Shown here one piece after another: positions 45,890 to 62,113 of a stretch of DNA of 64,000 nucleotides. The notes under the pieces were generated by a model. It ran no database searches. It saw only the letters and a program-made list of their open reading frames with translations, and was not told the DNA's origin. Source of the DNA: a bacterium (lineage in GTDB: Bacteria > Zhuqueibacterota > QNDG01 > JAGLOF01); NCBI GenBank assembly GCA_016934955.1, contig JAFGRY010000005.1, forward strand, positions 27,967 to 91,966, written 5' to 3'. Each line of letters starts with the position of its first letter. Positions within the stretch are counted from its first letter, which is position 1. Made by a program: the position numbers and the translations under genes.

Positions 45890-46231
45890 TTATTCCCTGA
45901 AACTCGCCACCGCTTCGTCCACTGTATCGAAGCACTCGAATATCGTGATCAGTTTCGTGATCATCAGCAGGCTGTTCACTTTTTCCGAGGCGCCGCAGAT
46001 CTTGAATACCCCGCCGCTGTTCTTGGAGGATGTGAGGCATGCCATGAGCATGCCCAGACCTTTGCTGTTCACCCATTTCACGTGGGAAAGATCGGCGACG
46101 ATTTTTTTAGTCTTTTCTTCCAGCAGCTCCTTGACTTTCATATGGCAGCTGTCAGTTTCACTGCCTCCCATGAGATTGCCTTTGACGGTGAGAACCGCCA
46201 CATCATCGACCATTTTTACTTTTGCGTTCAT
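45890..46231 (-). CDS. STAS-domain anti-sigma-factor antagonist (RsbV/SpoIIAA-like)
   Basis: 113 aa with the typical STAS layout. The conserved phospho-acceptor region reads DLSHVKWVNSKGLGMLM. Confidence 0.85.
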   Translation of the reverse strand: MNAKVKMVDDVAVLTVKGNLMGGSETDSCHMKVKELLEEKTKKIVADLSHVKWVNSKGLGMLMACLTSSKNSGGVFKICGASEKVNSLLMITKLITIFECFDTVDEAVASFRE

Positions 46232-46262: not shown

Positions 46263-47561
46263 TTACATTCTCTTTATCACCATTAATGTGATATCATCGA
46301 ACTGTTCCTGCGTACCGGCGAAAAGGCCTATCTCTTTTATCACCTCGTCGACAATGTCATCCGCCTTTTTCACCCGCAGGCGCTTTGCCAGGTTCCAGAG
46401 CCTCTCTTCTCCATACTCCTCCTGCAGTTCATTTATCGCTTCCGTCACTCCGTCTGAATAGACAACCAGTACTTCCCCCGGCGCGAGCGTACAGGTATCT
46501 TCCGGATAGTCGAATTGTTCCAGCATGCTCAGGACAATACCGGCGGTACACAATTCCGTGTGCTCACCGTTTCCGCGGACGATAAAGGGCCGGTTGTGTC
46601 CGGCGTTAGCATACACGATGGAGTGTTCGTTCACATCGAGTATTCCATAGAACAGAGTTGCGAATTTGTTTGCCTCAGTATTTCGATACAGCAGCCGGTT
46701 GGAATGGTTGAGACATTCGCAGGGACATTGCACCAACAGCGCCTCCGTGCGGATAGTCGCCTGCAGATTGGACATCAGCAGGGCCGCCGGGATTCCCTTG
46801 CCGCAGACATCAGCGACACAGAAAGCGAGCCGGTGCTCATCGATGGAAATAAAATCGAAGTAGTCGCCGCCTACCGCTTTTGCCGGATAGCTCACCCCGG
46901 CGATGTCGTATCCGTTTATGGACGGAGCCGCTTTCGGCAGAAGGCGGGTCTGAATTTCAGCCGCCAGCCGATGCTCTTCCTGTATACGGGTAAGCATCTG
47001 CTCCTGTTCCAACAGACGGGCGTTTTCAATAACCTGCGCCGATTGAGCCGCGATAATGGACAGCAGCCGCTGATCTTCTTCGGAAAATCCCTCATCCCCT
47101 TTCTTGTTGAAACATGAAATCAGCCCCATCATCTTGCCCTTTTTAAACAGGGGAACGCACAGCAGCGATTTTACCTGGACACCGTCCCGCGGCATCGCCT
47201 GAAATCGTTCATCGGTCTGCAAATCGTTGACAAGGAGCGGTTGCCGGTGTTTCAGCATCCACCCGGTCAGCTGGGTGTCGAGCCGATAGGGGGCTGCAAC
47301 CCTGCTCTGATCCGCTTCCCTGATCATGGTCTGAAAGGGATTGTCCGATGCCTCCTCCCTCAGAATCATCACCGCCGCCTGTTCAACATGAAAATGCTTT
47401 ATACATTTTTTAATTATCAGCGTTTCGATGGTGCCCAGTTCCATTGTTGAAGAGATAGTCGTCGAAATTTCGTTGAGTATCGACAGTTCTTCCACTGCAC
47501 GTTTCAGACGGAGATTTTCCTGTTTTATCGAATCTTTGCTGTCAGGGGTATCGGCGCTCAT
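46263..47561 (-). CDS. GAF-domain PP2C/SpoIIE-family serine phosphatase (RsbU-like)
   Basis: The likely start is MSADTPDSK at 47561; the longer ORF-track N-terminus overlaps the PrsW gene. A GAF-like region (ILNEISTTISSTMELG..LLCVPLFKKGKMMGLI) precedes PP2C motifs (AVGGDYFDF, VADVCGKGIPAALLMS, ANAGHN, YSDGVTEA, FDDITLMV). Confidence 0.85.
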   Translation of the reverse strand: MSADTPDSKDSIKQENLRLKRAVEELSILNEISTTISSTMELGTIETLIIKKCIKHFHVEQAAVMILREEASDNPFQTMIREADQSRVAAPYRLDTQLTGWMLKHRQPLLVNDLQTDERFQAMPRDGVQVKSLLCVPLFKKGKMMGLISCFNKKGDEGFSEEDQRLLSIIAAQSAQVIENARLLEQEQMLTRIQEEHRLAAEIQTRLLPKAAPSINGYDIAGVSYPAKAVGGDYFDFISIDEHRLAFCVADVCGKGIPAALLMSNLQATIRTEALLVQCPCECLNHSNRLLYRNTEANKFATLFYGILDVNEHSIVYANAGHNRPFIVRGNGEHTELCTAGIVLSMLEQFDYPEDTCTLAPGEVLVVYSDGVTEAINELQEEYGEERLWNLAKRLRVKKADDIVDEVIKEIGLFAGTQEQFDDITLMVIKRM

Positions 47562-47614: not shown

Positions 47615-48622
47615 TCATGCTTTTTTGACAAGATATATTTGCCACAAATCCCTGGTACTGGTATGAATCAGCGGGGCCAGCGCGATTTTGCCCGTTTTCC
47701 CGATAGCTTTCTCCAGGTATGCAAGTTCCTCCAGCTTCTTTTCCACTTCGACATCTCTGGCAATGCCGAACCCGGCACCCTGGGCAAGCAGAATTCCCTT
47801 GGCCCGGACAGCCAGCTCGAGATGAATCCTGAGGTAACAAAGCATATCCGCGAGGACCAAGCCCGTAAACCGTTCTCCCAGCGAATGAAGATACACTCCG
47901 ATATTCGTATCGGAAACACTTCCTTTGGTGATAATCTCCAGCGCGGTTACATCTGAATCCAATCCCTGTTCCAGCCACGCCCTCAGCAACACTTCACTTC
48001 TGGTGAATACCAAAATAAAGGCCAGCGGCATTAGAACGAGCTGAATGACGGTGATAAGCCTGGGATCAAGAATAAGATGATTGAAAAACGAATGAATAAT
48101 AATCGCTCCGGCCAGTCCCGGCAGAAAATGGTACAGCTGCACTCGTCCGCTTCTATCAGAAATGCTCTTTGCAGATATTGCCATGAGAGCTACCGTACCT
48201 CCATGCATCACCGCAGTGCCGAAACCGCGAATAATCCAGAGGAACATGCCTCCGGAGGGCAGATTGATAAGATATTCACTATTTTCAATCACCGCAAAAC
48301 CAGCCCCAACGGCAAAGCCGTAAATAGCGGCATCGACCATGAAACCAATCTTGTCATTTTTCAGTAAATAATACAGACAGCTTCCTTTTACCAGCTCTTC
48401 CAGAACAGGCGCGATCACCTGAGTATATACGGAGATAGGGATTCCGAATGTATTCAGGCTCCAGCTGGTAATGACATAGCAGGTGATTCCCGCGCCGCAT
48501 CCTGTAAGAACGAAGAACAGTACAGATCTCACCCGAACCAGCTTGTAACTGTCCAGGACAACGAGTGTCACCAGAAAAAACAGAACCGGGATCAGGCTTA
48601 TCCCCGCATCGGCGATTCCCAT
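47615..48622 (-). CDS. PrsW-family intramembrane metalloprotease with C-terminal cytoplasmic extension
   Basis: 335 aa with ~7 TM segments. PrsW-type motifs include PVLEELVKGS, FAVGAGFAVIENSEY, GFGTAVMHGG and IIHSFFNH. Its start codon overlaps the upstream stop by 1 nt (TAATG). Confidence 0.7.
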   Translation of the reverse strand: MGIADAGISLIPVLFFLVTLVVLDSYKLVRVRSVLFFVLTGCGAGITCYVITSWSLNTFGIPISVYTQVIAPVLEELVKGSCLYYLLKNDKIGFMVDAAIYGFAVGAGFAVIENSEYLINLPSGGMFLWIIRGFGTAVMHGGTVALMAISAKSISDRSGRVQLYHFLPGLAGAIIIHSFFNHLILDPRLITVIQLVLMPLAFILVFTRSEVLLRAWLEQGLDSDVTALEIITKGSVSDTNIGVYLHSLGERFTGLVLADMLCYLRIHLELAVRAKGILLAQGAGFGIARDVEVEKKLEELAYLEKAIGKTGKIALAPLIHTSTRDLWQIYLVKKA

Positions 48623-51570
48623 TATAATAATCTCAGTGAAACCATCACTTCTTTTGACGCATGTCGATCTTCAGCAAAAGCCCATGCATATCCGAGAGAA
48701 AGTGTGGACCGGAGTAATGAAAATGTCACCAGCCTCATATCCATCTGGCCACCCACACTCACATATCTTCCTGAAACAGCCTTGCTGTCAACATTGGTGA
48801 CCAGGACGGTGGAGAACAAGGCGAATCGGGCCCAACGGGCATAGAAACTTGGAGTACCCCATCGTTCGAACCGAACCGGCGGAAATGTCCATTCCACGGT
48901 GGTTTTCGCATAATTCGTCCCAGCAATAGCATTCAGTTCACATCCGGGGAAACTGTAATAACTGCGGTACCGTTGTATTCGCCGGTAATCCACCCAGTTA
49001 TTACCGAATCCACCGAAATAAAAGTTGGCGAAGGGCTCTCGCCTTTTCCCAATGGAATAGCCTGCTGAATTTCGAATCCAGATTGAAGAGTGATGCCAGG
49101 GCAGTAAAAAACCGACATCATGATTGAAATAAAAACGGGGGTACATGGTTCCGTTCACATAATTCAAGCTGGAGGCGATTTTCCAGGCGACCCCCTGCTC
49201 ATTGTTCACCGCGCCAAGAGAATTGAGCAGATTGGTATAATCCAGGCTGGCGCTGGCGCTCAGCAATTTATCATACGAGGCGTTGACATTCTGATAGTCG
49301 GGAAGCTTTTCAAGTCCCCCGTACCCCGCGGTCTGAAGGGAATACTGCAGTCTTCGCGGATTATCGTATATCAGATAATTGGAGTAGGCGATCCCCAGAG
49401 AATACCCTTTCCGGCTTGTCTTGGTCGGCCCGAACAGATCATAAAAATCGGTCCCGTTATATGTCCCGAAAACATTCACATTCCAGTGCTGGTAATCAAA
49501 ATTGGCATGCAGCCGCTCATCCTCGGGCAGCAGCCGGTTCGGCGTGTACAGTGCGGAAACATGCAGGGCATCGATGCCGCCCAGCGGATCCATCAGATCT
49601 ATCCGCATCCCATAGGCGGGAAATTCCTTGTATCCTTCCACCACCGGATAAATTGACGCCAATCTCAGACTCCCGAGACTTTTATATGCTCCAGCCGACA
49701 CGGCAAGGGTATCGAGACTGATCCTTTCAGGATTCGGAGGCTCCAGCGTCCAGGTCGTCAGTACAGGATGTTCGCGGAGGACTCTGTTCCCCAAGAGCGT
49801 GATCGAATCCACTTGACAGAGAGTATGTGGAATCAGCACGGGAGTGAATCCTTTCCCTGAATAGCGAAATACGAGCAGTGTATCAGGTGATATGACAAGG
49901 GGACGGAAAAAACCGGTCTCGCTGTTGCTGACGGGATAGGTCATTTTCTCCGCGAAATCATATCGGTATACATTGGAAACGCCGGTGTAGTACGAAGTGC
50001 CGTAAAGATATCTTCCATCAGGTGAAAAGACAAAATTCAAGGGTGAATTGCCCTCGAATTCCTCCAGCACCTCATAGTCCCGCTCGCCCCGCAGCAGATT
50101 TCGCATGTCGAACTTCACCAGACGCTGGTCTCCGTTGATTTCCGCCAGTGAGCCGCTCACCATGGTACCGTCGGGTGAAATATCAATATCGTACACATCC
50201 TTTCCATACGGCAGGGCAAGAATTTCCTGAAAGGAATCGTAGGGAGGCGGTATCCGCACCAGCGTTGAGTAGCCGTCGTGGTGACGCACACCCCAGATCG
50301 ATTCATCCGCTCCGTTCAGGGCCAGGTCCCCGATTCTCGCCTTTTTCATCAGCACCCTGCATTTGCCGGTGGACAGATCCACTGCATTGAGGCCTCGCCA
50401 CTGGGCGCTGTTGTGAGTAGTAAAATAGATCTCATCCGTGGACGAATTATAGACAAGTGATGTAACATAGTACAGACCGGGCGATGCCACATTGCAGATT
50501 TTATGGATACGGCCGGACTCCAGATCGATAGCGGCGATCTGAGAAATCTGCCCGGGATAATCGATCCCCATATATATTCTGTTCCTCTTTCTGTCCAGAC
50601 AGGCGTTGGAGACCGAGCCCAGCGGCTGCCGGCTGATGTTCCGGTACGGAGTCACCGGTTGTTGCCGGATAAATGCCAGGTTCTGCCGCTGCCATTCATG
50701 TTCCCATTGCACCCATTTTCGCCATTCTTCATCGAGACTGACGCTATATACGTTACTGAACTGCCGGGTAAAGTACCGCTTGCTGTCCCCGGTACGGTTG
50801 TACCACTTCAGGAGCTTATCGATTCCGTATCTATAGGCAAGATAACTGATGAATCGGGTTCCATACAAATATGAATTGATACCCATCTGAAAATCTATCG
50901 TTGTTCCTTCGGACTCGAGACCGACAACATCGTAAAAATGACTGGAGTCTCTGACCATTGACCGGAACACCATCTCATCATAGCCGTTCTGGGCTCTGCC
51001 AATTCCGCCGGACATCCAGGTCTCCATGAATACGGCAATGCCCTCATGATACCAGCGGGGTGAATACCAGCGGGGAGTGGTGAGATAACTGTACCACATG
51101 GACAGCGGATTTTCAGCCGTTGGATTCACTTTGCCGCTGAACAGCTTTCTAAATAAACGATCGGATGCCGCAGCTTTATCTGTAGCCAGGACATGCACCA
51201 GTTCATGATTCATTACCCAGTTCATGCGTTCATTCGCCGGGGACACCTCATACACATAATCATAAGGTTCGAGACCGATGTTGAGAAAATTCCAGGGGAT
51301 CGTATTGGTACCACCCGATCCATAATCATTGAAATCCTGCAGCAGTATCGTAACTTCTTCTGAAGGAGTATAATCAAACAGACGACGGTGGAATGAAAGC
51401 GAATTTTCAAAGCAACGGGCAATATGCGGAATGAATACTTCATGATTTTTGTCGTAATATATAAGGCGGAGGTTTTTTGTTCTCAACGAATAAAGCGGCA
51501 CCTGTGACCGGGCGCCGTTGTACATCAAAAGCAGCGAAAGCAGAATCATTACCCGGGGGAAACGGATCAT
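48622..51570 (-). CDS. Secreted fusion protein: Peptidase_MA-type zinc metallopeptidase + PD40/TolB-like beta-propeller + Omp85-like C-terminal beta-barrel
   Basis: The likely start is MIRFPRVMILLSLLLMYNGARSQ at 51570. A HELVH motif is followed ~50 aa later by WYHEGIAVFMETW. PD40-like strings are present (FSPDGRYLYGTSYYTGVSNVYRYD; ISPDGTMVSGS). The C-terminal ~350 aa are beta-strand-like, with FYFGGFGNNWVDYRRIQRY..AGTNYAKTTVEWTFP. Confidence 0.55.
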   Translation of the reverse strand: MIRFPRVMILLSLLLMYNGARSQVPLYSLRTKNLRLIYYDKNHEVFIPHIARCFENSLSFHRRLFDYTPSEEVTILLQDFNDYGSGGTNTIPWNFLNIGLEPYDYVYEVSPANERMNWVMNHELVHVLATDKAAASDRLFRKLFSGKVNPTAENPLSMWYSYLTTPRWYSPRWYHEGIAVFMETWMSGGIGRAQNGYDEMVFRSMVRDSSHFYDVVGLESEGTTIDFQMGINSYLYGTRFISYLAYRYGIDKLLKWYNRTGDSKRYFTRQFSNVYSVSLDEEWRKWVQWEHEWQRQNLAFIRQQPVTPYRNISRQPLGSVSNACLDRKRNRIYMGIDYPGQISQIAAIDLESGRIHKICNVASPGLYYVTSLVYNSSTDEIYFTTHNSAQWRGLNAVDLSTGKCRVLMKKARIGDLALNGADESIWGVRHHDGYSTLVRIPPPYDSFQEILALPYGKDVYDIDISPDGTMVSGSLAEINGDQRLVKFDMRNLLRGERDYEVLEEFEGNSPLNFVFSPDGRYLYGTSYYTGVSNVYRYDFAEKMTYPVSNSETGFFRPLVISPDTLLVFRYSGKGFTPVLIPHTLCQVDSITLLGNRVLREHPVLTTWTLEPPNPERISLDTLAVSAGAYKSLGSLRLASIYPVVEGYKEFPAYGMRIDLMDPLGGIDALHVSALYTPNRLLPEDERLHANFDYQHWNVNVFGTYNGTDFYDLFGPTKTSRKGYSLGIAYSNYLIYDNPRRLQYSLQTAGYGGLEKLPDYQNVNASYDKLLSASASLDYTNLLNSLGAVNNEQGVAWKIASSLNYVNGTMYPRFYFNHDVGFLLPWHHSSIWIRNSAGYSIGKRREPFANFYFGGFGNNWVDYRRIQRYRSYYSFPGCELNAIAGTNYAKTTVEWTFPPVRFERWGTPSFYARWARFALFSTVLVTNVDSKAVSGRYVSVGGQMDMRLVTFSLLRSTLSLGYAWAFAEDRHASKEVMVSLRLL

Positions 51571-51740
51571 CGTACATTTCCCCCTCTCTTTATCTATCGT
51601 GCGGAGAGCAGCCATATTTATCTCCCATTGGTGAGATACATGCGCAATCCGATTCTTTCAGTCTGATGAATGCACGAAAAGAACGTGGCCCGTTCCTTGA
51701 CAAAATAGATATATTCTTCCTGCCATGTGGAGATAGCACT

Positions 51741-51772
51741 CCGCGGAGGGGATGCAGTACTCCCCTCCGCGG
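51741..51772 (-). terminator. Perfect 12-bp GC-rich stem-loop downstream of the repeat-protein gene (terminator-like, no U tract)
   Basis: CCGCGGAGGGGA (51741-51752) and TCCCCTCCGCGG (51761-51772) are exact reverse complements with an 8-nt loop. The structure sits ~45 nt beyond the stop at 51818. Confidence 0.5.
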
Positions 51773-51817: not shown

Positions 51818-53962
51818 CTATTGTATCGAACGGTCAGGATTCGTGGATCTCATCCGGTCCAGTGTCTCGGCTCTCTCAACGGGTTGCATTCTCGCCAGGG
51901 CGTCCGTCCGCTCGGGAATTGCCATCATTCCCAGCGTTTCAACACGAACAGGAAGGGACAGTCTGTCGAGGGTGAACGCCCGAATACCCGGAGCCATCTT
52001 CTCGAGGGAAAGCGCCCGTTCCGACAGCGGCAGTCGCTCCAGCACCAGCGCCCGGTCCGCTATGGCGAGTTTTTCCAGGGCCTCCACTCGTTTCTCAAGC
52101 GCCATCTGTCCCAGCACATCGGCTCTCTCAGGAAACGCCATTTTCTCAAGCGAAAAAACCCTGTTATTAATCGACATTTTCTCGAGCTCGCCGGCACGTT
52201 GTGGAAGCGATAATTTTGCCAGATCTTCATGGAATGCCGCTATACTGGCCATTTTCTCGAGAGTCTCTGTTCTAACTGCCGGAGCGAGCTTATCCAGCGT
52301 TTCTTCACGGAACATCTGAGCCATGCGGTCCAGCGTCTGAGCTCTTTTCTCAAGAGTCAGTTTCTCGAGTGAAGGAATACGATCTGAGATTGCCAGCTTT
52401 TCAAGCACGCCTGCACACTGAGCGACCGGCAGCCTTTCCAGTGTTTCGATCCGTAATTCCGGAGCCATTCTCTCAAGAGCTTCAAACCTTTCTTCTGACG
52501 CCATCTTTTCTAGAGAGAGGGCACGGTCCGGGAGCGATAGTCGGCTCAATGATTCGACCCGGATGGGAATCGACATCTTTTCCAGACTGAGATACCGCAC
52601 CGGCAGAGAGAGTTTCTCGAGCGATTCCACTCTCTTCGGCAATGAGAGTTTTTCCAGTGATTCCACTCTCGAGGCATCACTCATTCTCTCAAGGGCTTCG
52701 CTCCGCTCCACACTCTTCATCCTCTCCAGAGCGGGGATTCTTTGATCCAGTGCCAGTTTTTCCAGAGACAGCGCCCGTTCCCTCACTGCCATTTGCTGCA
52801 ATATATCGGTCCGGCTCTCAAGCGACATTCTTCCCAGACATTCAGCGCGAGGCTCCAACGCCATTCTTTCCAGGGTGGCCGTCTGCACCGGAAGGCTGAG
52901 TTTTTCAAGAGACGAAAGACGAACAGGAAGCGCGAGTCTCTCAAAGGTCAACGCCCGATCGGGCAGACTGAGCTTTTCCAGGGAACTGAAACGCTCTGCA
53001 TCAGCCATTTTTTCCAGAAACATGGTTCTTTGTGTGATCGCCATCCGTTCCAGACATTCATTTCTCAGCGGCAGTGACATCTTATCGAGCGTTGCAGCCC
53101 CGTCAGGCAGAGACAGTTTTTCCAGGGCATAGGTCCGTTCGATCGGTGCCAGTTTTTCCAGGGTCGCCGCTCTTTCTTCAGGAGCCAGTTTTTCCAGACT
53201 CGTCTGATCGGCTTCCAGCCGCTTCATTCTTTCCAGAGTCTCGGTTTTTATCGCCGGGGCCAGTCTCTCCAACGATTCAGCCTGTATGGCCTTTGCCATG
53301 CAATCCAGTGTCAGTGCCCGTTCGGTCGGTGCCATCTTCTGCAAAACGTCCATCCGGTCAGCAGGTGCCATCATTTCCAGGGTTTCCGTACGCCTGGAAA
53401 CGGCCATCTGTTCCAAGTACGGCGAGAGCGGACGAGCGATGCTCATCTTCTCGAGAGTGGACAGCCGTTCTTCCAGGGCCATTTTTTCCAGGGTGAGCAC
53501 CTGATCGGGAAGAGCCAGTTTCTGCAGGATATCAATTCTTTCCGGAAGCGCCAGTTTTTCAAGTGTAAGGGCTCTCTCGACAGGCACCATCCGGGCAAGA
53601 GCCTCATCCCGCTGCGGTACAGCCATTTTCATGAGAACCGCGGCACGATCCTGACTGGACATGCGCCCCAGCTCCTCGGCCCGCTCGGGGGCTGCCATCT
53701 TTTCCAGAGACTCCGCATACTCTTTCAGTGATACGATCTGCGTCGTCTCATCGGTGTGAATGCTTTTGATCACAACGTCAGCGTCGGTAATCTGTTCAGC
53801 ACGAAATTTTTCTGCTTTTTTTGCGCCACCGATGGTACCGCTGACTTCAAGTGACTTGGGCCATGGATAAATCGCCGCTAAATACACCACAACAATAATG
53901 GCCACGACTGACACACCGACAATCAGTCCCCACTGCCGTTTGTTTCTTTCATTCTTACTCAT
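51818..53962 (-). CDS. Membrane-anchored periplasmic protein composed of ~50 tandem 12-residue repeats (unknown family)
   Basis: 714 aa. The start is preceded by GGAAGGAGGAACACC. A basic N-terminus and one TM (WGLIVGVSVVAIIVVVYLAAIY) come first. An uninterrupted LEK[LM]xxPxRxxx array then runs to the C-terminus. Confidence 0.7.
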   Translation of the reverse strand: MSKNERNKRQWGLIVGVSVVAIIVVVYLAAIYPWPKSLEVSGTIGGAKKAEKFRAEQITDADVVIKSIHTDETTQIVSLKEYAESLEKMAAPERAEELGRMSSQDRAAVLMKMAVPQRDEALARMVPVERALTLEKLALPERIDILQKLALPDQVLTLEKMALEERLSTLEKMSIARPLSPYLEQMAVSRRTETLEMMAPADRMDVLQKMAPTERALTLDCMAKAIQAESLERLAPAIKTETLERMKRLEADQTSLEKLAPEERAATLEKLAPIERTYALEKLSLPDGAATLDKMSLPLRNECLERMAITQRTMFLEKMADAERFSSLEKLSLPDRALTFERLALPVRLSSLEKLSLPVQTATLERMALEPRAECLGRMSLESRTDILQQMAVRERALSLEKLALDQRIPALERMKSVERSEALERMSDASRVESLEKLSLPKRVESLEKLSLPVRYLSLEKMSIPIRVESLSRLSLPDRALSLEKMASEERFEALERMAPELRIETLERLPVAQCAGVLEKLAISDRIPSLEKLTLEKRAQTLDRMAQMFREETLDKLAPAVRTETLEKMASIAAFHEDLAKLSLPQRAGELEKMSINNRVFSLEKMAFPERADVLGQMALEKRVEALEKLAIADRALVLERLPLSERALSLEKMAPGIRAFTLDRLSLPVRVETLGMMAIPERTDALARMQPVERAETLDRMRSTNPDRSIQ
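51863..53707 (-). repeat. Degenerate 36-nt (12-codon) in-frame tandem repeat array, ~50 copies
   Basis: Example units are LEKLSLPDRALT, FERLALPVRLSS, LEKLSLPVQTAT, LERMALEPRAEC and LGRMSLESRTDI. On the plus strand this appears as recurring ttttccag / tttctcgag strings. Many shadow ORFs are open in all plus-strand frames. Confidence 0.9.
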
Positions 53963-54067: not shown

Positions 54068-54859
54068 TTAGTGTAGATCATCGAGCGATATCGTCTTCGA
54101 GATGATTACATCCCCCCCTTTCTGTATGTCAAGACGTATTTCCTGCCTGGAGAACGACATTCCTTTAAAAAGAATGAGGCACCTGTACCTGCCGAACGCG
54201 CTAAAAGCTGTGCGATCGACGGTTTTCACAAACGAAAGTCCGGCAGTATCGGGTGACGACACTCCGAAAAAATTGATCGCCTGCGGATTATAGGAAAAGG
54301 TAAGTGTCATCGGTGATGCAGCATCTATATCTACCGTGAACCCGATAATAGTATCGTGAATGCTTGCATCTATGGCCCCGGTAATCCGGTCTTCGTTCAG
54401 TGTCTGAGAAAACAGCGGCTTGAATCCTCCCGATCCATGCAGGCCCACGGTACCCAGAAAATCGTCAGTGACCGGCGCATACTGATCCTCAGCGATCGGC
54501 GCGATAAGTATCAGCATGACTCCGACCGCAACTCCAGCCGTGAACGTAACCACCCGAGCGGGTGAAAAGAGCCGGCTGAATCCGTTGACGGCAGTTTTCT
54601 TACCCGAGGCGGTCGATCGCGCTGCATAGCGGTTGGTATCAATGGAGTTCATGATGGTTTTTATCAAATTGTCGGAAGGATCGGGAGTCGACATCCGGGA
54701 GAGGGTACGGGAGATGGTAAGCTGATGAGTATATTCCCTTTTAGCCTCGGAGTGTCCGGCTGTATAGGAGTCGAGCCATTTTTTCTCGTGGTCCGAAAGG
54801 CCTTGCTCAATCTCCTTTGCCAGCAGTTTTTTAAACCGTCTCTTCGACATATTCTGCAT
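54068..54859 (-). CDS. Putative single-pass membrane anti-sigma factor
   Basis: 263 aa. Its start overlaps the ECF sigma gene end by 20-29 nt (ATG 54859 or 54850). It has a helical N-terminal ~90 aa, one TM (VVTFTAGVAVGVMLILIAPIA), and a ~140-aa extracytoplasmic domain. No zinc HxxxCxxC motif is present. The call rests mainly on position and topology. Confidence 0.5.
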   Translation of the reverse strand: MQNMSKRRFKKLLAKEIEQGLSDHEKKWLDSYTAGHSEAKREYTHQLTISRTLSRMSTPDPSDNLIKTIMNSIDTNRYAARSTASGKKTAVNGFSRLFSPARVVTFTAGVAVGVMLILIAPIAEDQYAPVTDDFLGTVGLHGSGGFKPLFSQTLNEDRITGAIDASIHDTIIGFTVDIDAASPMTLTFSYNPQAINFFGVSSPDTAGLSFVKTVDRTAFSAFGRYRCLILFKGMSFSRQEIRLDIQKGGDVIISKTISLDDLH

Positions 54860-55403
54860 ACCCCTTTTCTATACAGTATTTCCTGATCACTTGCCGGGCC
54901 GAGAAAAGGCGGGACTTCACTCTCTTCTCCGGGATATCCATGATATAAGCAATATCCGCATAGGGCAGTTCGATAAAATATTTCAGGACAATCACTGCTC
55001 TGTATATAGTATCCAGAGAATCTATTGCCGCATGGAGAATGCGGTCACGTTCCCAGGTTTCCACCATCTCGGCGGGCGACCGCCCGGATCCCGCCTGTTC
55101 ATGCTCCAGTGTTCCTGTTTTACAGTTTCGTTCTGCAAAGTTCAGTGCTTCATTGACTGCGATACGGTAGATCCAACTGAAAAACTTATATGTCTGCTTG
55201 TATCGACCGAGATTCTCATACACTTTCAGAAAGACCGACTGGGCAATATCCTCGGCATCATTATAATTATGAACAATCCCGAAGACCAGTTTAAATACCT
55301 GTCGCTGGTACCGTTCAACCAGTATCCTGAACGTTTCCGTGTCACCCTGTAGACAGCGCCGGACACATTCTCTATCAGTCAGTTCTGTCATAAATACAGG
55401 CAC
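54831..55403 (-). CDS. ECF-type (group 4) RNA polymerase sigma-70 family factor
   Basis: 190 aa. Region 2 reads FRILVERYQRQVFKLVFGIVHNYNDAEDIAQSVFLKVYENL..WIYRIAVNEALN. Region 4 reads RAVIVLKYFIELPYADIAYIMDIPEKRVKSRLFSAR. There is no region 3. Confidence 0.9.
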   Translation of the reverse strand: MPVFMTELTDRECVRRCLQGDTETFRILVERYQRQVFKLVFGIVHNYNDAEDIAQSVFLKVYENLGRYKQTYKFFSWIYRIAVNEALNFAERNCKTGTLEHEQAGSGRSPAEMVETWERDRILHAAIDSLDTIYRAVIVLKYFIELPYADIAYIMDIPEKRVKSRLFSARQVIRKYCIEKGYAEYVEETV

Positions 55404-55428: not shown

Positions 55429-55716
55429 TTACCGGTCAGCTATTGAAAAAATCAAGTCGAATCCGGCATAATGGAAAATATCCCGGATATGGTCAGTGAG
55501 ATTGATCAGTTTCAATTCACTGCCGCTTTCCTTGAGCCGTTTCTGGGTTGCCAGCAGCACCCCCAATCCACTGCTGGAGATATATTCCAGCGTGGCAAAA
55601 TCGACGGTTGCGGTTTCCGATACCCGGTCGAACATCTCCAGTGCATACGCTTCCCTGCTGGCGTCAAACCGACCCTCCAGAATCAGCAGATCCTTTTCAA
55701 TGGTGATCTGAAACAT
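55429..55716 (-). CDS. STAS-domain anti-sigma-factor antagonist (RsbV/SpoIIAA-like)
   Basis: 95 aa. The conserved region VDFATLEYISSSGLGVLL contains the phospho-acceptor Ser. It overlaps the upstream kinase gene by 20 nt. Confidence 0.85.
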   Translation of the reverse strand: MFQITIEKDLLILEGRFDASREAYALEMFDRVSETATVDFATLEYISSSGLGVLLATQKRLKESGSELKLINLTDHIRDIFHYAGFDLIFSIADR

Positions 55717-56131
55717 AGGTATTCTCCAGATTTTTTCTCAGGGTGATTATGCTGCGCCTGTTCTCATAGTGGTAATCAACCTCATCCATCAGTTTATGGA
55801 TCAGGGGGATGCCGAGCCCTCCTACTCTCCTCTCCTCTATTTTCTTTTTGAAGTTATATGGCTCGCGCATACGGATATCGAAACGGTCCACATCAGTATC
55901 GATGAGGGTGATCACCAGGACATCCTTATCGCGCACAAGTGATATCGATACCGGATTGTGATTGTTCTTCACATATTTTACCGAGTTGGTAAAGAGTTCC
56001 TCCACTGCAAGATTGACGGCGAACACCGTCCTGGCATCCAGTTCGGCGGTGTGCGCAAATGCATCGATCAGAAGGTTGATATGTTCGAGCGATTCCATGG
56101 TGCGGGGGAACGATGCTGAGACTGATGCCAT
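55697..56131 (-). CDS. Anti-sigma regulatory factor, RsbW/SpoIIAB-like serine protein kinase (HATPase_c_2)
   Basis: 144 aa. The N box reads AVEELFTNSVKYV and the G2-like region GGLGIPLIHKLMDEVDY. Size and layout are typical of partner-switching kinases. Confidence 0.8.
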   Translation of the reverse strand: MASVSASFPRTMESLEHINLLIDAFAHTAELDARTVFAVNLAVEELFTNSVKYVKNNHNPVSISLVRDKDVLVITLIDTDVDRFDIRMREPYNFKKKIEERRVGGLGIPLIHKLMDEVDYHYENRRSIITLRKNLENTYVSDHH

Positions 56132-56791: not shown

Positions 56792-59128
56792 TCAATGTTT
56801 TGCGGGAAAATTCATTTTTTGTATCAATTCCTGAAAGCGCGGTTCATCACGCAGCAGATCCCATTTGGGATCGACATTGAGATACACCAGATCCTGCATC
56901 CGCTCCTCCCAGGCAACCTCCAGCCAGTCCAGGGCCCGCTCGGTATCCTCGGCATATGCATAGTAGGCGGCAATGGACAGCGAGTGAGCACGGTTGGAAC
57001 GGGCCTCCAGGGCCTGTGCCACCCGGCGCATGGCTTCCCGGTACCCGCCTTCGCGGTACCCCTGATTGAGGGCGTTGAGAAGATCATCAGAGCCCTTTAT
57101 CTCATATACATTTCGTCTTACGGCAAGCGCTTCGGTGTCATTCCCTCTGAATTGATAGCATTGCGCCAGGTTGCCGAGAGCATCGGTAAAATCGGACTGA
57201 AGTGCGATACTCTCTTTATACTGCTCGATGGCTAGATCATAGCGGCGGGAACGCTTGTATACCTGCCCCAGATAGGCCTGATGCATGGCATTCATCGGAT
57301 CCAGCTGAATGCCTGCTTTCATCTGGGCCTCAGCCTCTTCAAACCGTCCCATTCCGGTCAGGAACAGCCCGTAAAAGATCCGCGCCTGGGCATAATTCGC
57401 ATTAAGCGTCAATGCCTTTTTAAACTCCTCTTCAGCCTTCTCCCAGTCAAATAAATACCAGGTGGCAAACCCCGCCATGCCGTAATGGCCCTCAGCTAGT
57501 GTGCTGTCCAGCTCAAGACAACTTTCCACAGCTGCCTTCCAGTTCGGCATAATCTGCCTGGGAAGCATTCCAAAATATGTCATCGCAGCCCAATACATCG
57601 CAATACCGTGATATGCCGGAGCATAATCCGGATCCTTTTGCAGGGCCAGCTCAAAATATCCCCGTGACAATTCAAGATCCTGTCTGGAGAATTTATTCCA
57701 GTGGAACCGGCCTTTCAGCAAGGCTTCATAAGCATCAGGATCAACCTCCCTTGATCTGGTGAGGCGTTGTTTTTCTTTCTCCGTAACGGTAACGGTGGTA
57801 TTGTGAGCAATCTCCAGTGCCAGCTCGCTGTACAGGTTCAGAACATCACACCTGGCCCGCCTGTAGGTATCTCCCCAGATATTTCGCTCCACCGGGAGCG
57901 CATCGATCAACTGAAGCCGGATGCGGACGGTGTCACCGGCTTCGTAGACCGTGCCCTCCACCAGGGCATCCACTTTCAGCTCCCGGGCGATCTCGGGCAG
58001 AGATTTTACGGTGGTCTTGTACCCCATAATCGATGTCCGTGAGATGATCCGTTTGAATCCCTGAATCTGACCCAGCTGGCCGATCAGCTCATCGGTTACA
58101 CCGTCCGCAAAAAATTCCTTGTCCGGATCACCGGTCATGTTTTTCAGCGGCAGCACCGCAATGGATTCAATCGCATCGGCCCGGCCAGTGCATAGATGAA
58201 TCCCTGACACAGAGAGAATAACAGCAAGCACGGTGAAACTCGTATAGAGGATGACTCTTTTTCTTCTCCGCAGTTTCGCCTTCCTCAGCCGGGACTGAAT
58301 ATCGTCCGGCATGATCCCGGCGTTGATCGACTGCAGATCCTCCAGCAGCTTTTGCATTGTCTGGTAGCGTGCATCAGGACTTTTTTCCAGCGCTTTGCAG
58401 ACCAGCTGCTCCAGCGATTCGGGAATATCCGGATTGACCCGGGAGACCGCTTTCGGCTCTTCATTCAATATTGAATACATCACCGCCTGCTCGTAATCGC
58501 CCCTGAAGGGCCGCTCGCCGGTGAACATCTCGTAGAGGATGACGCCCAGGGCCCAGATGTCCGTGCGATGATCCACCTCCGTGCCCTGCATCTGCTCCGG
58601 CGACATGTAGCCGATGGTGCCCAGGGTCGTGCCCGCCCTGGTCAGCAGGCTGCGGTCGGACAGCTTGGCCAGGCCGAAATCGACGATCTTGACCGTGCCG
58701 TCCCCGGTGATGAGGATATTGGCCGGCTTGATGTCGCGGTGCACGATGCCTTTGGTGTGGGCCTTATCCAACCCCCTGGCGATCTGGACGGCGATCTCCA
58801 TCGCATCCTCAACCGGCAGCGGGCCCCGGCTTATTCTATCCTTTAAGGACTCGCCCTCATAACAGGCCATGGCAATATAGAGCTGACCGTCCTCGCTCTC
58901 ATTGATCTCATAAACGGTGCAGATATTGGGATGATCCAGGGCCGAGGCTGCCTTCGCTTCGTGAATGAAGCGCTGCTTGTCCTCCGGGGATTGGCTCAGA
59001 TGGGGCGGCAGAAACTTGAGGGCCACGAAACGGTCCAGTTTAATGTCAATTGCTTTGTAGACCGTGCCCATCCCGCCGCGGCCTAGTTCTTCGATGATTT
59101 TGTAATGAGATATGGTTTTGCCGATCAT
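56792..59128 (-). CDS. Ser/Thr protein kinase with TM segment, TolB-N-like extracytoplasmic domain and TPR repeats (paralogue 1)
   Basis: The likely start is [26 protein letters not shown] at 59128; the ORF-track extension overlaps the upstream gene. Kinase motifs include [17 protein letters not shown] and [13 protein letters not shown] segment ([16 protein letters not shown]) is followed by [22 protein letters not shown] and then TPR-like repeats. Confidence 0.9.
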
Positions 59129-59237
59129 ACGCCATTTCTCACGAAGGCCTTGCGGGATATCGCGTCCCGATACTTCTGGAAAGTACCGCCGCTGGCGTGA
59201 TTTCCCAGGATCGTGTGAAGGTGAACCGCCATGCCTG

Positions 59238-61949
59238 TCACGGTGCGCCCCTCCCTGTGCCGCCGACATGACCCGGCTGTGTCCCGGATCTGTCCGCAGC
59301 CGGGGCGGATTCACTGATTTTCCCGGTCTCTGCCGGCGCGTTTGTATCGCTCTGCACACCGCCCCTGGCCAGCAACGCCTGGAACTTCGGATGATTTCTG
59401 AGAGGGTCATACAGCGGATCAAGCCGCAGGATCTGTGCGGTGATCACTTTAGGAACCTCCGGTGAGAGAAGAAAGTCCAGCTTTTCCAGGGCATCTTCAT
59501 ATCTGCCGACCATCACATACACCTGAGTCAGGGCAATCAGCGGATACATCCCTCGCAATGCGTCAGCAGAAAGCGGAAGAAGGTCTACAGCCCGCTCAGC
59601 TTCCCGTACGGCCTCGTCCGGCTGGCCAAGACCGGCATAGGCAATTCCCAATGCGCTGTAAAGCCGGTCATCGTCCGGATTTTTATTGATTTGTGACAGG
59701 AGGAACGACCGGGCGGAATCGAATGAAGCAACCGATTTCTCTTTGTCATCCAGCAACCGGTAAATCAGCCCCCGGAGTAAAAATACCGGAGTGATGGAAT
59801 ACTGGTACTCATAGGAATTTTCGGCAACCCGGTCCAGACGTTCGAGGGCCGCAGTGTATGTGCGTTCATACATATCCAGCCAGGCCAGATGCGCCCACGG
59901 CTTTATATCGGACTGAATACGATCGAGATCGTTACGGCTTTCTTTTGTATCTCCGGATCGGAGCAAATCGATATCCGCCTTCCGGATGTAGGGCCACACC
60001 GGTTCGGAAGAGAGCGCAATATAGCGATCGAAATACGTCTCGGCTTCAGAAAACCTGCCAAGCCAGGATAACGTTACGCCGATCTCATAAAGTGTGTTCA
60101 GATTTTTCGGATCGAGTTCAAAGCCCTTTTTCTGCTTCTCCAGTGCCTGCGCGAATTTCCCCTGCCTTCTCCAGATATAGGCCACAGCCGTCAGAATTCG
60201 ACTGCTGTTCGGTAACCGCTTTTCAGCAATGGCAAATGATCTCAGTGCTTGCGGGTAATTCCGGAATCCGAAATAATAATAAATACCCAGCACATAGTAG
60301 GCTTCGGGCATATCACTTTGCAGAGCGAATGCCCGGTCCAGGGCCGCCTTTGCCGCGGATAGCCGCTCCTGGGACCGGTCGAATCCAAACCAGTAGTATC
60401 TCAAATGTGCTGTAGAAAGAGAGAGATAGGCAAGTACAAAAGTAGAATCCAGCTCGACTGCGCGTTGACACAACTCGATCCGTTTTTCCATTCCGGAGCG
60501 TTCATAGATTGAAACTGAGAGACACTGCAGATAGGCCTGGTATGCATCCAGATTCTTTGTCGGGATCATGGCCAGGCTCAGTCTCTCTGTTTCATTCAGA
60601 ACGATATCCAGCGATTTCACGACCTGGGTGGCAATATCCGTTTGTATGGCAAAGATATCCTCCATCGTCCGATCCATGTTACCGGCCCAAAGCTGTACAT
60701 CATCCGTCACCTGAATAAGCTTGGGTGTGATCCGGATCCGGCCCAGGTTACCGGATTTCACCCAGCGTATCGTTCCCTCGAGTACATAGTCAACACCCAG
60801 TTCTTTGGCGATGACGGGAAGGGGCTTCGATGACTTTTTATAGTGTTCGGCACTGGTCCGGGAGATGACGCCGAGATTGCGGACCGAGCTCAGGCGCGAC
60901 GTGATTTCTTCAGTGAGTCCATCGGCAAAATACTCATCCTCCGCCGGCCCCAGGTTCTCAAACGGGAGAACGGCGATCATTTTCAATCGGTGCGTCTCTT
61001 CCTTCCCGGGCTGGAACAGGAAATATCCGAGTAAAACCAGTACAATCAGAACCGCGGGGACTCCATATCGCAGAAGCCTCCGTCTGTTTTGTTCGTGTTT
61101 CGCGTCGTGCCGTCCGGGTAATCCCTCCGGGAGAGTGCCGGTCTGGAGAGCGATCAAATCATCGAGGAAATCCGCCATGGTGGCATAGCGGGTATCAGGT
61201 TCCTTTTCCAGTGCCCTGCACACGATCCCCTCAAGAAAAGGAGGAAGATCCGGACGCAGATCAGCCATGACTCCGGGTTCCTCGTTGAGAATCGAGTAGA
61301 TCACCGCCTGCTCGTAATCCCCCTTGAAGGGCCGCTCTCCAGTGAGCATCTCAAAGAGGATGACTCCCAGGGCCCAAATGTCCGTCCTCTGATCGACCGC
61401 GTCTCCCCGTGCCTGCTCAGGCGACATATAGGCGACCGTTCCCAGGGTGGTCCCCTCTTTGGTCAGGAGGCTGCGGTCGGCCAGCTTGGCCAGGCCGAAG
61501 TCGACGATCTTGGCGGTCCCGTCCTCGGTGATGAGGATATTGGCCGGCTTGACATCCCGGTGCACAATGCCCTTGGCGTGAGCTTTGTCCAGCCCCCGGG
61601 CGATCTGAACGGCGATGTCCATGGCATCTTTCACGGGCAGAGGGCCCCTGCTGATTCTATCCTTAAGGGACTCACCCTCGTAGCAGGCCATAGCGATGTA
61701 GAGCTGTCCCTCTTCGCTCTCGTTGATCTCGTGGATGGTGCAGATGTTGGGATGGTCAAGGGCCGAGGTGGCCCTGGCTTCGTGAATAAATCGCTTTTTA
61801 TCCTCGGCGGATTGACTGAGATGGGCGGGCAGGAATTTCAGGGCCACAAAGCGGTCGAGCCTGGTATCCTGCGCCCTGTAGACCGTGCCCATGCCGCCGC
61901 TACCAATCATTTCGAGGATCTTATAATGAGATATTTCTTTCCCTATCAT
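59238..61949 (-). CDS. Ser/Thr protein kinase with TM segment, TolB-N-like domain and long TPR region (paralogue 2)
   Basis: 903 aa. The kinase domain is visibly highly similar to paralogue 1 (HRDVKPANILI, DFGLAK, GTVAYMSPEQ). A TM segment (VPAVLIVLVLLGYFLF) is followed by IAVLPFENLGP..FADGLTEEI and many TPR-like repeats. The tail is low-complexity. Confidence 0.9.
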   Translation of the reverse strand: MIGKEISHYKILEMIGSGGMGTVYRAQDTRLDRFVALKFLPAHLSQSAEDKKRFIHEARATSALDHPNICTIHEINESEEGQLYIAMACYEGESLKDRISRGPLPVKDAMDIAVQIARGLDKAHAKGIVHRDVKPANILITEDGTAKIVDFGLAKLADRSLLTKEGTTLGTVAYMSPEQARGDAVDQRTDIWALGVILFEMLTGERPFKGDYEQAVIYSILNEEPGVMADLRPDLPPFLEGIVCRALEKEPDTRYATMADFLDDLIALQTGTLPEGLPGRHDAKHEQNRRRLLRYGVPAVLIVLVLLGYFLFQPGKEETHRLKMIAVLPFENLGPAEDEYFADGLTEEITSRLSSVRNLGVISRTSAEHYKKSSKPLPVIAKELGVDYVLEGTIRWVKSGNLGRIRITPKLIQVTDDVQLWAGNMDRTMEDIFAIQTDIATQVVKSLDIVLNETERLSLAMIPTKNLDAYQAYLQCLSVSIYERSGMEKRIELCQRAVELDSTFVLAYLSLSTAHLRYYWFGFDRSQERLSAAKAALDRAFALQSDMPEAYYVLGIYYYFGFRNYPQALRSFAIAEKRLPNSSRILTAVAYIWRRQGKFAQALEKQKKGFELDPKNLNTLYEIGVTLSWLGRFSEAETYFDRYIALSSEPVWPYIRKADIDLLRSGDTKESRNDLDRIQSDIKPWAHLAWLDMYERTYTAALERLDRVAENSYEYQYSITPVFLLRGLIYRLLDDKEKSVASFDSARSFLLSQINKNPDDDRLYSALGIAYAGLGQPDEAVREAERAVDLLPLSADALRGMYPLIALTQVYVMVGRYEDALEKLDFLLSPEVPKVITAQILRLDPLYDPLRNHPKFQALLARGGVQSDTNAPAETGKISESAPAADRSGTQPGHVGGTGRGAP

Positions 61950-62113
61950 TGGTGAAGAACCTCAATAGTTCGTAAGGAATATATGGTTTTTCATAGCAAA
62001 AAGTCATTGCGGCCGAGTCCGTTTAAAACACTTTTATTTACCCCCGTAATGATGGCCGAAGTTACCATCCATGTGTCACTTACCGCATTTACAACCGGCA
62101 TCTTGATTTCATG

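Follow-up and report, generated by a model that had tools for sequence, protein, structure and literature searches.

In a 64,000-nucleotide (nt) stretch of bacterial DNA (GenBank assembly GCA_016934955.1, contig JAFGRY010000005.1, positions 27,967 to 91,966; hereafter the window), a gene on the minus strand at 48622-51570 encoded a 982-amino-acid (aa) protein, named PEP here, that joined a predicted zinc peptidase, a six-bladed beta-propeller and an Omp85-type barrel in a single chain. The gene directly downstream encoded a PrsW-family intramembrane protease; the two were kept side by side in most related loci and were fused into one protein in three clusters. The domain architecture of PEP, the conservation of its catalytic residues, its gene linkage and the fusions are documented below. 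These findings suggested a proteolytic pathway spanning two membranes, in which PEP would be the protease that sits in the outer membrane, faces the periplasm and acts on a membrane-anchored rod or anti-sigma protein. We consider this overall picture moderately probable, and its single steps each less so.

Domain architecture of PEP

The gene and the parts of its product were located as follows.

48622-51570, minus strand: PEP gene, 982-aa secreted peptidase, propeller and Omp85-type barrel; stop codon at 48622-48624
51502-51570, minus strand: signal peptide predicted from the sequence, residues 1-23, MIRFPRVMILLSLLLMYNGARS followed by Q
50635-51501, minus strand: divergent Peptidase_MA_2-type gluzincin domain, residues 24-312
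51193-51207, minus strand: HELVH, residues 122-126
51043-51045, minus strand: codon of Glu176, candidate third zinc ligand
49816-50634, minus strand: six-bladed TolB/PD40-type beta-propeller, residues 313-585
49666-49815, minus strand: linker of two short helices, residues 586-635, no POTRA domain
48625-49665, minus strand: Omp85-type 16-strand barrel, residues 636-982
48916-49053, minus strand: L6-like loop, residues 840-885

The open reading frame (ORF) extended over 48622-51615 on the minus strand, and the start at 51570 was chosen (MIRFPRVMILLSLLL..ARS/Q, the slash marking the cleavage site). A GGGGG ribosome-binding site lay 8-10 nt upstream of this start, and the 982-aa product was identical to the recorded protein P0005. 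The signal peptide, judged by eye only, had an n-region with R, an 11-residue hydrophobic core and an A-R-S/Q site; residues 4-21 formed a lone helix in the model, and the end of the signal peptide was kept as ..AQ/xYSL in the family consensus. The AlphaFold2 model of full-length PEP reached a predicted local distance difference test score (pLDDT) of 84.4 and a predicted template modelling score (pTM) of 0.83.

HELVH was placed on a helix (residues 115-131) of the model, and WYHEGIAVFMETW stood at residues 173-185, 50 residues past the second His, with E176, within PRWYHEGIAVFME, on helix 172-186. H122, E123, H126 and E176 were invariant in 52 homologues with 54-72% identity, and their conservation remained at least 90% in a set of 31 sequences with 18-49% identity. 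The 50-residue spacing between HELVH and the Glu arose because an insert of ~32 residues separated the two helices, and its pattern (ATDKA...GKV.P..E.P.S) was almost invariant among the 52 homologues. When the family alignment of residues 24-312 was compared by hhalign with 29 true Peptidase_MA_2 (PF13485) proteins gathered from same-phylum genomes, the two matched over 218 columns with a probability of 98.8% (E=7.5e-17), HExxH being set on HExxH and PRWYHEGIA on PRWFxEGlA. PF13485 itself gave no match to PEP at E<=1 in a whole-genome search, and 3 of the 31 relatives touched it, each below the cut-off. Weaker likeness to M1 peptidases was also seen, by phmmer to the Glu helix of the M1 aminopeptidase IRAP (E=0.019) and by Pfam to Peptidase_M1 (E=0.13, sub-threshold). 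As judged from these alignments, the N-terminal domain is a homologous but divergent relative of Peptidase_MA_2, a predicted zinc peptidase and an active-looking gluzincin.

The propeller model comprised 24 strands in six blades (residues 318-581), with two PD40-like blades at residues 464-488 and 513-536. Foldseek of the whole model returned TolB structures as the best matches (E=8e-9); this search was dominated by the propeller and was uninformative on the peptidase and the barrel. A diverse family profile compared with the sequences of the PDB also matched TolB at E=8e-9, and the family profiles gave only TolB-type matches there, with no peptidase and no barrel among them. Pfam PD40 scored E=0.002 on PEP, below its cut-off. 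In both structure and sequence, residues 313-585 were thus matched best by TolB of the Tol-Pal system, itself a six-bladed PD40 propeller. Unlike TolB, PEP had no TolB N-terminal domain and was encoded outside a tol-pal operon, and its propeller was internal to a predicted outer-membrane protein.

The barrel was formed by 16 long strands (residues 636-981) in the full-length model; a domain-only model placed an extra short strand after a PP kink at residues 897-898, giving a strand count of 16 +/- 1. When the separate model of residues 586-982 (pLDDT 85.0) was run in Foldseek against the PDB, the top 50 matches all belonged to the Omp85 superfamily (E=7e-7 to 2e-4), including BamA from Bacteroides, E. 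coli, Salmonella, Neisseria, Deinococcus, Porphyromonas and Flavobacterium, as well as TamA, FhaC and Toc75. In sequence, the barrel was linked to Omp85 through paralogues. Same-phylum paralogues of ~1000 aa matched PEP residues ~25-584 (E=7e-16 to 1e-9), and their ORFs passed both PF13485 and PF01103. By hhalign, the PEP barrel matched the paralogue barrels at 99.5% (E=1e-22), and the paralogue barrels matched BamA at 98.5% (E=1.6e-15). On this comparison of sequence families, the transitive link to Omp85 through paralogues that pass PF01103 is firm. Pfam Omp85_2 (PF19143) touched residues 826-894 (E=0.0026, 17.6 bits). No POTRA domain was matched by Pfam in PEP, and only a 50-residue linker separated propeller and barrel in the model.

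A plain hmmscan of PEP looks negative because the protein falls below every Pfam gathering score: the Pfam and NCBIfam scan returned sub-threshold matches only (PD40, Omp85_2 and Peptidase_M1). Such a result is not evidence that the domains are absent, as profile-profile and structure comparison resolved them. The initial annotation of this DNA, made from the letters and translated reading frames, had proposed a protease fused to a propeller and a barrel, and every sequence feature that it listed was found where it had been placed. Its signal peptide was recovered, its HExxH...EGxAx[FY]xE arrangement agreed with the hhalign match and the invariant catalytic residues, and its PD40/TolB-like blades with the six-bladed model and the TolB matches. 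The last ~350 aa, described as rich in beta-strand character, became the 16 long strands of the model, and the Omp85-type barrel, which it had called its weakest part, was upheld by the Foldseek matches and the paralogue link; a soluble protein, the outcome that it had named as contrary, was not what the AlphaFold model showed. Its suggestion of an hmmscan fared less evenly: PD40 and Omp85_2 were touched below the cut-off, and no Pfam gathering score was reached.

The orientation of PEP was considered from its longest loop. Loop L6 of Omp85 proteins lies between strands 11 and 12 and is extracellular; its conserved tip motif, VRG[FY], goes with a second motif on the wall of the barrel. In PEP, a 46-residue loop between strands 11 and 12 held FYFGGFGNNWVDYRRIQRY (residues 850-868) and, like L6, came after an odd-numbered strand; the loop carried a nearly invariant pattern (FYFGGFGNNxVD...RYR...FPG). 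The peptidase and the propeller would lie on the periplasmic side, because the position of this long loop corresponds to that of extracellular L6. PlpD, an Omp85 protein whose enzyme domain was once thought to be exported, likewise carries that domain in the periplasm (PMC11116518).

The PEP family and its linkage to PrsW

The family proved to be very large. A word-indexed search recovered at least 6259 proteins (90%-identity clusters) at E<=0.001 among the 8000 candidates retained; the best 120 relatives were ~945-1024 aa long with 95-100% query coverage and were mostly titled "hypothetical". An exhaustive HMMER search of 50%-identity representatives gave 2658 clusters, with the full-length architecture still present at identities as low as 28%, and species-representative genomes contained at least 591 loci with a PEP relative. 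Because the family is so large and its architecture so widely kept, the fusion is not an assembly artefact of this contig. Judged by record titles, which are not always reliable for uncultured genomes, the carriers included Bacteroidota (Balneolales, Gracilimonas), Ignavibacteria/Chlorobi, KSB1, Latescibacterota, Calditrichota, Fibrobacterota, Zixibacteria, Eisenbacteria, Gemmatimonadota and Acidobacteriota. There is no curated protein family model for the PEP clade, and its members are named "hypothetical" or "PD40 domain-containing" in databases. Two relatives of 1211-1226 aa (P0154, P0159) carried a ~250-residue N-terminal extension after the signal peptide; in one of them a weak AMIN-domain match was seen (E=0.002, below the cut-off).

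The three-part fusion is of a kind that was catalogued earlier and left unstudied. Heinz & Lithgow 2014 (Front Microbiol 5:370) described a "WD40-like Omp85" subfamily and, in their Table S3, reported for each member matches to an M1-type aminopeptidase (Phyre2), to TolB (2w8b, 2ivz) and to the BamA/TamA barrel (PMC4104836). They read the subfamily as a BamA-BamB-like fusion, mentioned neither PrsW nor sigma factors, and noted that the WD40-like and noNterm subfamilies likewise have no POTRA (PMC4104836). The subfamily was still called uncharacterised in 2024 (PMC11116518). PEP shares with it the three parts, their order and the absence of POTRA. Same-phylum proteins with PF13485, PF07676 and PF01103, taken as a proxy for the catalogued members, were related to PEP. 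Compared with these paralogues, PEP formed a separate, divergent clade (18-24% identical), alone was linked to PrsW, and fell below the PF01103 and PF13485 cut-offs; the conserved active-site insert is PEP's own. PEP is probably a divergent clade of WD40-like Omp85. At least two further proteins of the peptidase-propeller-barrel type, paralogues with lengths of 979 and 1046 aa, were encoded in the source genome, at C29:192461-195400 (L006:1303-4242) and at C21:~48000-51300 (L088), of which the one on C21 passes both PF13485 and PF01103. Genomes of the phylum held several ~1000-aa paralogues each, none adjoining PrsW.

Linkage to PrsW was assessed in 84 related loci, the denominators 76 and 52 being the loci with enough flanking DNA. 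In 71 of 76 loci a prsW gene lay directly downstream of PEP and on its strand; the remaining 5 had one at another place in the locus. A sample of 31 genomes of the phylum contained a PEP orthologue in 11; PrsW was on the same contig in all 11 and directly downstream in 9. The paralogues with 21-24% identity in this sample had no PrsW link, and other PrsW paralogues lay elsewhere. In the window, the last A of the PEP stop codon TAA (48622) was also the A of the PrsW ATG, forming a TAATG overlap. Three protein clusters joined PrsW and PEP in one chain of 1328-1365 aa (51-81% identical to one another), in the order PrsW, C-terminal cytoplasmic extension, internal signal-like helix (SKA/Q or ASA/Q) and PEP. 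These were real ORFs in independent assemblies (L155:8001-12098, L156:4839-8936, L157:4588-8574), with no sigma genes nearby and with neighbours that suggested anaerobic Bacteroidales-like genomes. Such fusions tie the N-terminus of PEP to the inner membrane through the internal helix with its AxA/Q site. The overlap of the two genes, reported in the initial annotation, was confirmed, and the two questions that it had raised about homologues were both answered in the affirmative: the three parts recurred throughout the clusters and loci counted above rather than on this contig alone, and the PrsW neighbour was kept in the related loci, in the genomes of the phylum and in the fusions.

The PrsW gene and its co-directional neighbours were arranged in the order RsbW-like, STAS, sigma factor of the extracytoplasmic function (ECF) type, 263-aa protein, rod protein, PEP, PrsW, GAF-PP2C and STAS.

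55697-56131, minus strand: RsbW-like HATPase_c_2 kinase gene (Pfam), upstream of PEP in 43/52 loci
55429-55716, minus strand: STAS anti-anti-sigma gene (Pfam), upstream of PEP in 46/52 loci
54831-55403, minus strand: ECF sigma factor (Sigma70_r2, Sigma70_r4_2)
54068-54859, minus strand: single-pass membrane protein, 263 aa, putative anti-sigma; overlaps the end of the sigma gene
51818-53962, minus strand: membrane-anchored rod protein, 714 aa; N-terminal transmembrane helix, then the motif, then MgtE_N-type short helical repeats
53774-53839, minus strand: juxtamembrane motif GTIGGAKKAEKFRAEQITDADV in the rod protein
47615-48622, minus strand: PrsW-family intramembrane protease, 335 aa (PF13367, E=2.8e-18, 66.6 bits), with a ~130-residue C-terminal extension
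46263-47561, minus strand: GAF-PP2C (SpoIIE-type) phosphatase (Pfam)
45890-46231, minus strand: second STAS gene (Pfam)

The rod protein, which matched MgtE_N in Pfam (E=2e-27), carried a motif of the general form G[TA]IG..[KQ]K[YA]..[EQ]Q[IM].D.DV, located ~10-15 residues after the transmembrane helix. By a motif model, 68 of 88 loci encoded a protein with the anchor and this motif on the same strand as PEP, mostly ending just before PEP; this count represents nearly all loci with enough upstream DNA. The repeats after the motif varied by lineage (9- to 12-residue units, in frames of 232-1140 aa), and in ~18-20 loci the chain started with an anti-sigma-like helical domain (..ELIxxEIDGxxSPEES..). 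The fusion loci kept, upstream, a membrane-anchored G-D-I-G-K-A-K-x-Y-[RK] protein, at a distance of 10 nt in L155 and L156 and of ~230 nt in L157. Because these loci kept the anchored protein and lost the sigma genes, the minimal conserved unit consists of the anchored motif protein, PEP and PrsW. The juxtamembrane motif is a candidate PrsW recognition or cleavage site, and the rod protein a candidate substrate or sensor.

Of the 52 loci with room upstream of PEP, 48 had an ECF sigma gene there. The 263-aa protein beside it in the window gave no match in Pfam. It had a degenerate GTVG motif after its transmembrane helix, and BLASTP matched it (E=2e-10) to a chain that joins its N-terminal domain, the transmembrane helix, GTIG and the repeats. 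Its ~140-residue periplasmic domain was beta-rich by eye and matched no family; in related genomes a repeat rod stands in that place. M50 site-2 proteases were present in the source genome, so that this genome encodes PrsW, a site-2 protease and an ECF sigma factor, together with a membrane protein that would be the anti-sigma by its position and by homology to the fused forms.

A proposed two-membrane pathway and its alternatives

RsiW of B. subtilis receives its site-1 cut from PrsW, is trimmed by other peptidases and is then cut by RasP. In the pathway proposed here, a 16-strand BamA-type barrel would anchor the propeller and the zinc gluzincin on the periplasmic side, the propeller would bind the ectodomain of the rod or anti-sigma protein, and the peptidase would cut or trim it. 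PrsW would cut near the membrane, at or by the GT[IV]G..K[KY]..Q motif, and the remaining stub would pass to a site-2 protease, freeing the sigma factor. The RsbW/STAS/PP2C set may add cytoplasmic control, and in some lineages the motif protein itself would carry the anti-sigma domain. What the substrate is, how the cuts follow one another and that a sigma factor is the output are inferred from the gene content and from these comparisons.

The closest known system is sigma-W/RsiW/PrsW/RasP of B. subtilis, which shares with the PEP cluster a PrsW together with an ECF sigma factor and a single-pass anti-sigma-like protein, as well as a site-2 protease in the genome; extracytoplasmic peptidases beside PrsW are also required there. 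The host of PEP, in contrast, has two membranes, and the extra peptidase would be anchored in the outer membrane and adjoins or is fused to PrsW, which itself carries the C-terminal extension. The presumed substrate differs in its GTIG motif and repeat rod, and RsbW/STAS/PP2C genes are added. A likeness to the sigma-E system of E. coli (DegS/RseA/RseP) lies in a periplasmic protease that reads the state of the outer membrane and in the stepwise cleavage of an anti-sigma factor. The proteins of the two systems, however, are not related to each other: DegS, a serine protease with a PDZ domain, is anchored in the inner membrane, and sigma-E involves neither an Omp85 barrel nor PrsW. Among Omp85 proteins, PlpD of Pseudomonas aeruginosa resembles PEP in bearing an N-terminal enzyme on the barrel; that enzyme is periplasmic, and PlpD is neither an insertase nor a translocase (PMC11116518). 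Unlike PEP, PlpD has a POTRA domain and a lipase (patatin-like) domain, forms homodimers and has no known link to PrsW or a sigma factor.

Several points weigh against the proposed pathway. PEP scored below the gathering values of Pfam (PD40, 18.3 vs 20.9 bits; Omp85_2, 17.6 vs 23.1 bits), and neither PF13485 nor PF01103 was matched by PEP in the Pfam scan. The Foldseek template modelling (TM) scores of the barrel were moderate (0.42-0.51), and the direct hhalign of the PEP barrel with BamA barrels was weak (66%, E=6e-5); that alignment paired FYFGG of PEP with FFAGG of BamA and RYR with VRGF, the literal Omp85 L6 tip motif VRG[FY] being absent from the loop. The C-terminus, ..SLRLL, was non-aromatic. 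Pfam anti-sigma domains matched neither the 263-aa protein nor the fused forms, so that the anti-sigma label of the 263-aa protein, drawn from gene position and from homology to the fused forms, is putative. No conserved ECF-type promoter was found upstream of PEP in 80 loci, and the unit also occurred with no sigma gene nearby (L002 and L155-L157); sigma release is not the sole output of the unit, because it exists in the absence of such a gene. The 80 loci examined were also the closest relatives (47-70% identity), and the context of more distant members came from the phylum sample only.

Alternatively, PEP and PrsW could be outputs, that is, general envelope quality-control proteases within the regulon of the neighbouring ECF sigma factor, so that their adjacency would reflect co-regulation. 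Both genes do belong, with the sigma factor, to a single cluster read in one direction, PEP is set off from the genes upstream by a hairpin and a ~250-nt gap, and periplasmic proteolytic quality control has been raised for Omp85 proteins, although for the separate "Metallo" subfamily and not the WD40-like one (PMC4104836). We judge this reading unlikely. The three PrsW-PEP fusion clusters lack a sigma gene and yet keep the membrane-anchored partner, L002 likewise has no sigma gene and keeps the transmembrane-GTIG protein, PEP and PrsW together, an ECF-type promoter before PEP was no more a rule (4 of 80 loci) than in control windows (16 of 339), and the precedent for PrsW is a specific site-1 cut and not bulk quality control. 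A somewhat smaller chance was given to PEP being a transporter, in which PrsW would release the rod from the inner membrane for transfer to the surface through the barrel and maturation by the peptidase, or in which PEP's own N-terminal domains would leave through the barrel, in the manner of type V secretion. The rod gene adjoins PEP as TpsA adjoins TpsB, FhaC was among the structural matches of the barrel, and every Omp85 protein characterised before PlpD has a role in protein assembly or translocation (PMC11116518). PEP, however, has no POTRA domain, which TpsB (type Vb) and PlpD-like (type Vd) proteins need for substrate handling, and this sets it apart from type V secretion. Many lineages have the rod as the ectodomain of an anti-sigma-like protein, an arrangement suited to signalling rather than to secretion; the PrsW fusions and AMIN-like extensions hold the N-terminus inside the envelope, and the enzyme domain of PlpD is periplasmic and not exported (PMC11116518).

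PEP could also be a structural tether or assembly factor, a "BamA-BamB fusion" that docks the rod as an envelope bridge and uses the peptidase domain as a binding module. This would suit a propeller resembling TolB, a membrane-linking, protein-binding platform, and rod-like repeat proteins that could span the periplasm, and the analogy to BamA-BamB was itself a speculation of Heinz & Lithgow (PMC4104836). We regard it as very unlikely, since catalysis is favoured by the HExxH and the Glu ligand, which do not vary among close homologues and show at least 90% conservation in distant ones, the lengths (frames of 232-1140 aa) and repeat types of the rods vary in a manner odd for a fixed bridge, and the constant partner is a protease, PrsW.

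Returning to the proteolytic pathway, we suggest, tentatively, that the barrel may be neither an insertase nor a translocase and may form the outer-membrane end of an envelope-spanning signalling device. The rod or anti-sigma ectodomain would reach from the inner membrane to the Omp85-anchored propeller and protease, and PEP would become able to cut the rod once the outer membrane or the periplasmic gap was disturbed, licensing the PrsW cut and the release of the ECF sigma factor. If true, this would give FCB-group bacteria, Acidobacteriota and Gemmatimonadota a counterpart of DegS/RseA composed of unrelated proteins.

Omp85 proteins hold a central place in the biology of the outer membrane. 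To our knowledge, the well-studied members all insert or translocate proteins, and the enzyme-bearing subfamilies are almost unexplored. No description of such a system was found in the literature on PrsW with Omp85, beta-propeller, ECF or STAS; the gene context (PrsW, the motif protein and PEP) appears to be the new and undescribed part, and the occurrence of PEP next to PrsW and a rod or anti-sigma protein in hundreds of species points to an undescribed envelope signalling device. The near-obligate pairing of PEP with PrsW and with the motif protein offers a bench-testable hypothesis on how the state of the envelope may be reported to an ECF sigma factor outside Proteobacteria. If true, it would provide the first function for PrsW in two-membrane bacteria. 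The PrsW-PEP fusions and the juxtamembrane motif are direct handles for biochemistry.

Other features of the cluster

The source genome encoded a second PrsW paralogue at C3:16287-16859, which scored 110 bits in Pfam compared with 68 for the PEP-linked PrsW; the extra C-terminal domain of ~130 residues was a feature of the PEP-linked PrsW clade. An ATGA overlap between the PrsW and PP2C genes, which a PP2C start at 47618 would create, is probably not real, as the 432-aa homologue in L001 favours the start at 47561, located 53 nt after the PrsW stop. A candidate ECF-type promoter (GGAAC-N15-CGT) 127 nt upstream of PEP was set aside as a chance occurrence, given the frequencies in the loci and the control windows. 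The 991-aa neighbour in L002 was considered as a PEP paralogue and rejected; its sequence is unlike PEP, and it is an unrelated protein.

The hairpin in the ~250-nt gap between the rod and PEP genes had a perfect 12-bp stem (CCGCGGAGGGGA...TCCCCTCCGCGG) at 51741-51772. It was followed by no T tract on the coding strand and may separate two transcription units. Beside the cluster, three Ser/Thr kinase-TPR genes lay in tandem at 56792-63991 of the window on the minus strand, and such genes were also present in two of the three related loci that were inspected gene by gene (L001:436-3192 and L002:14650-17643), so that this association may recur.

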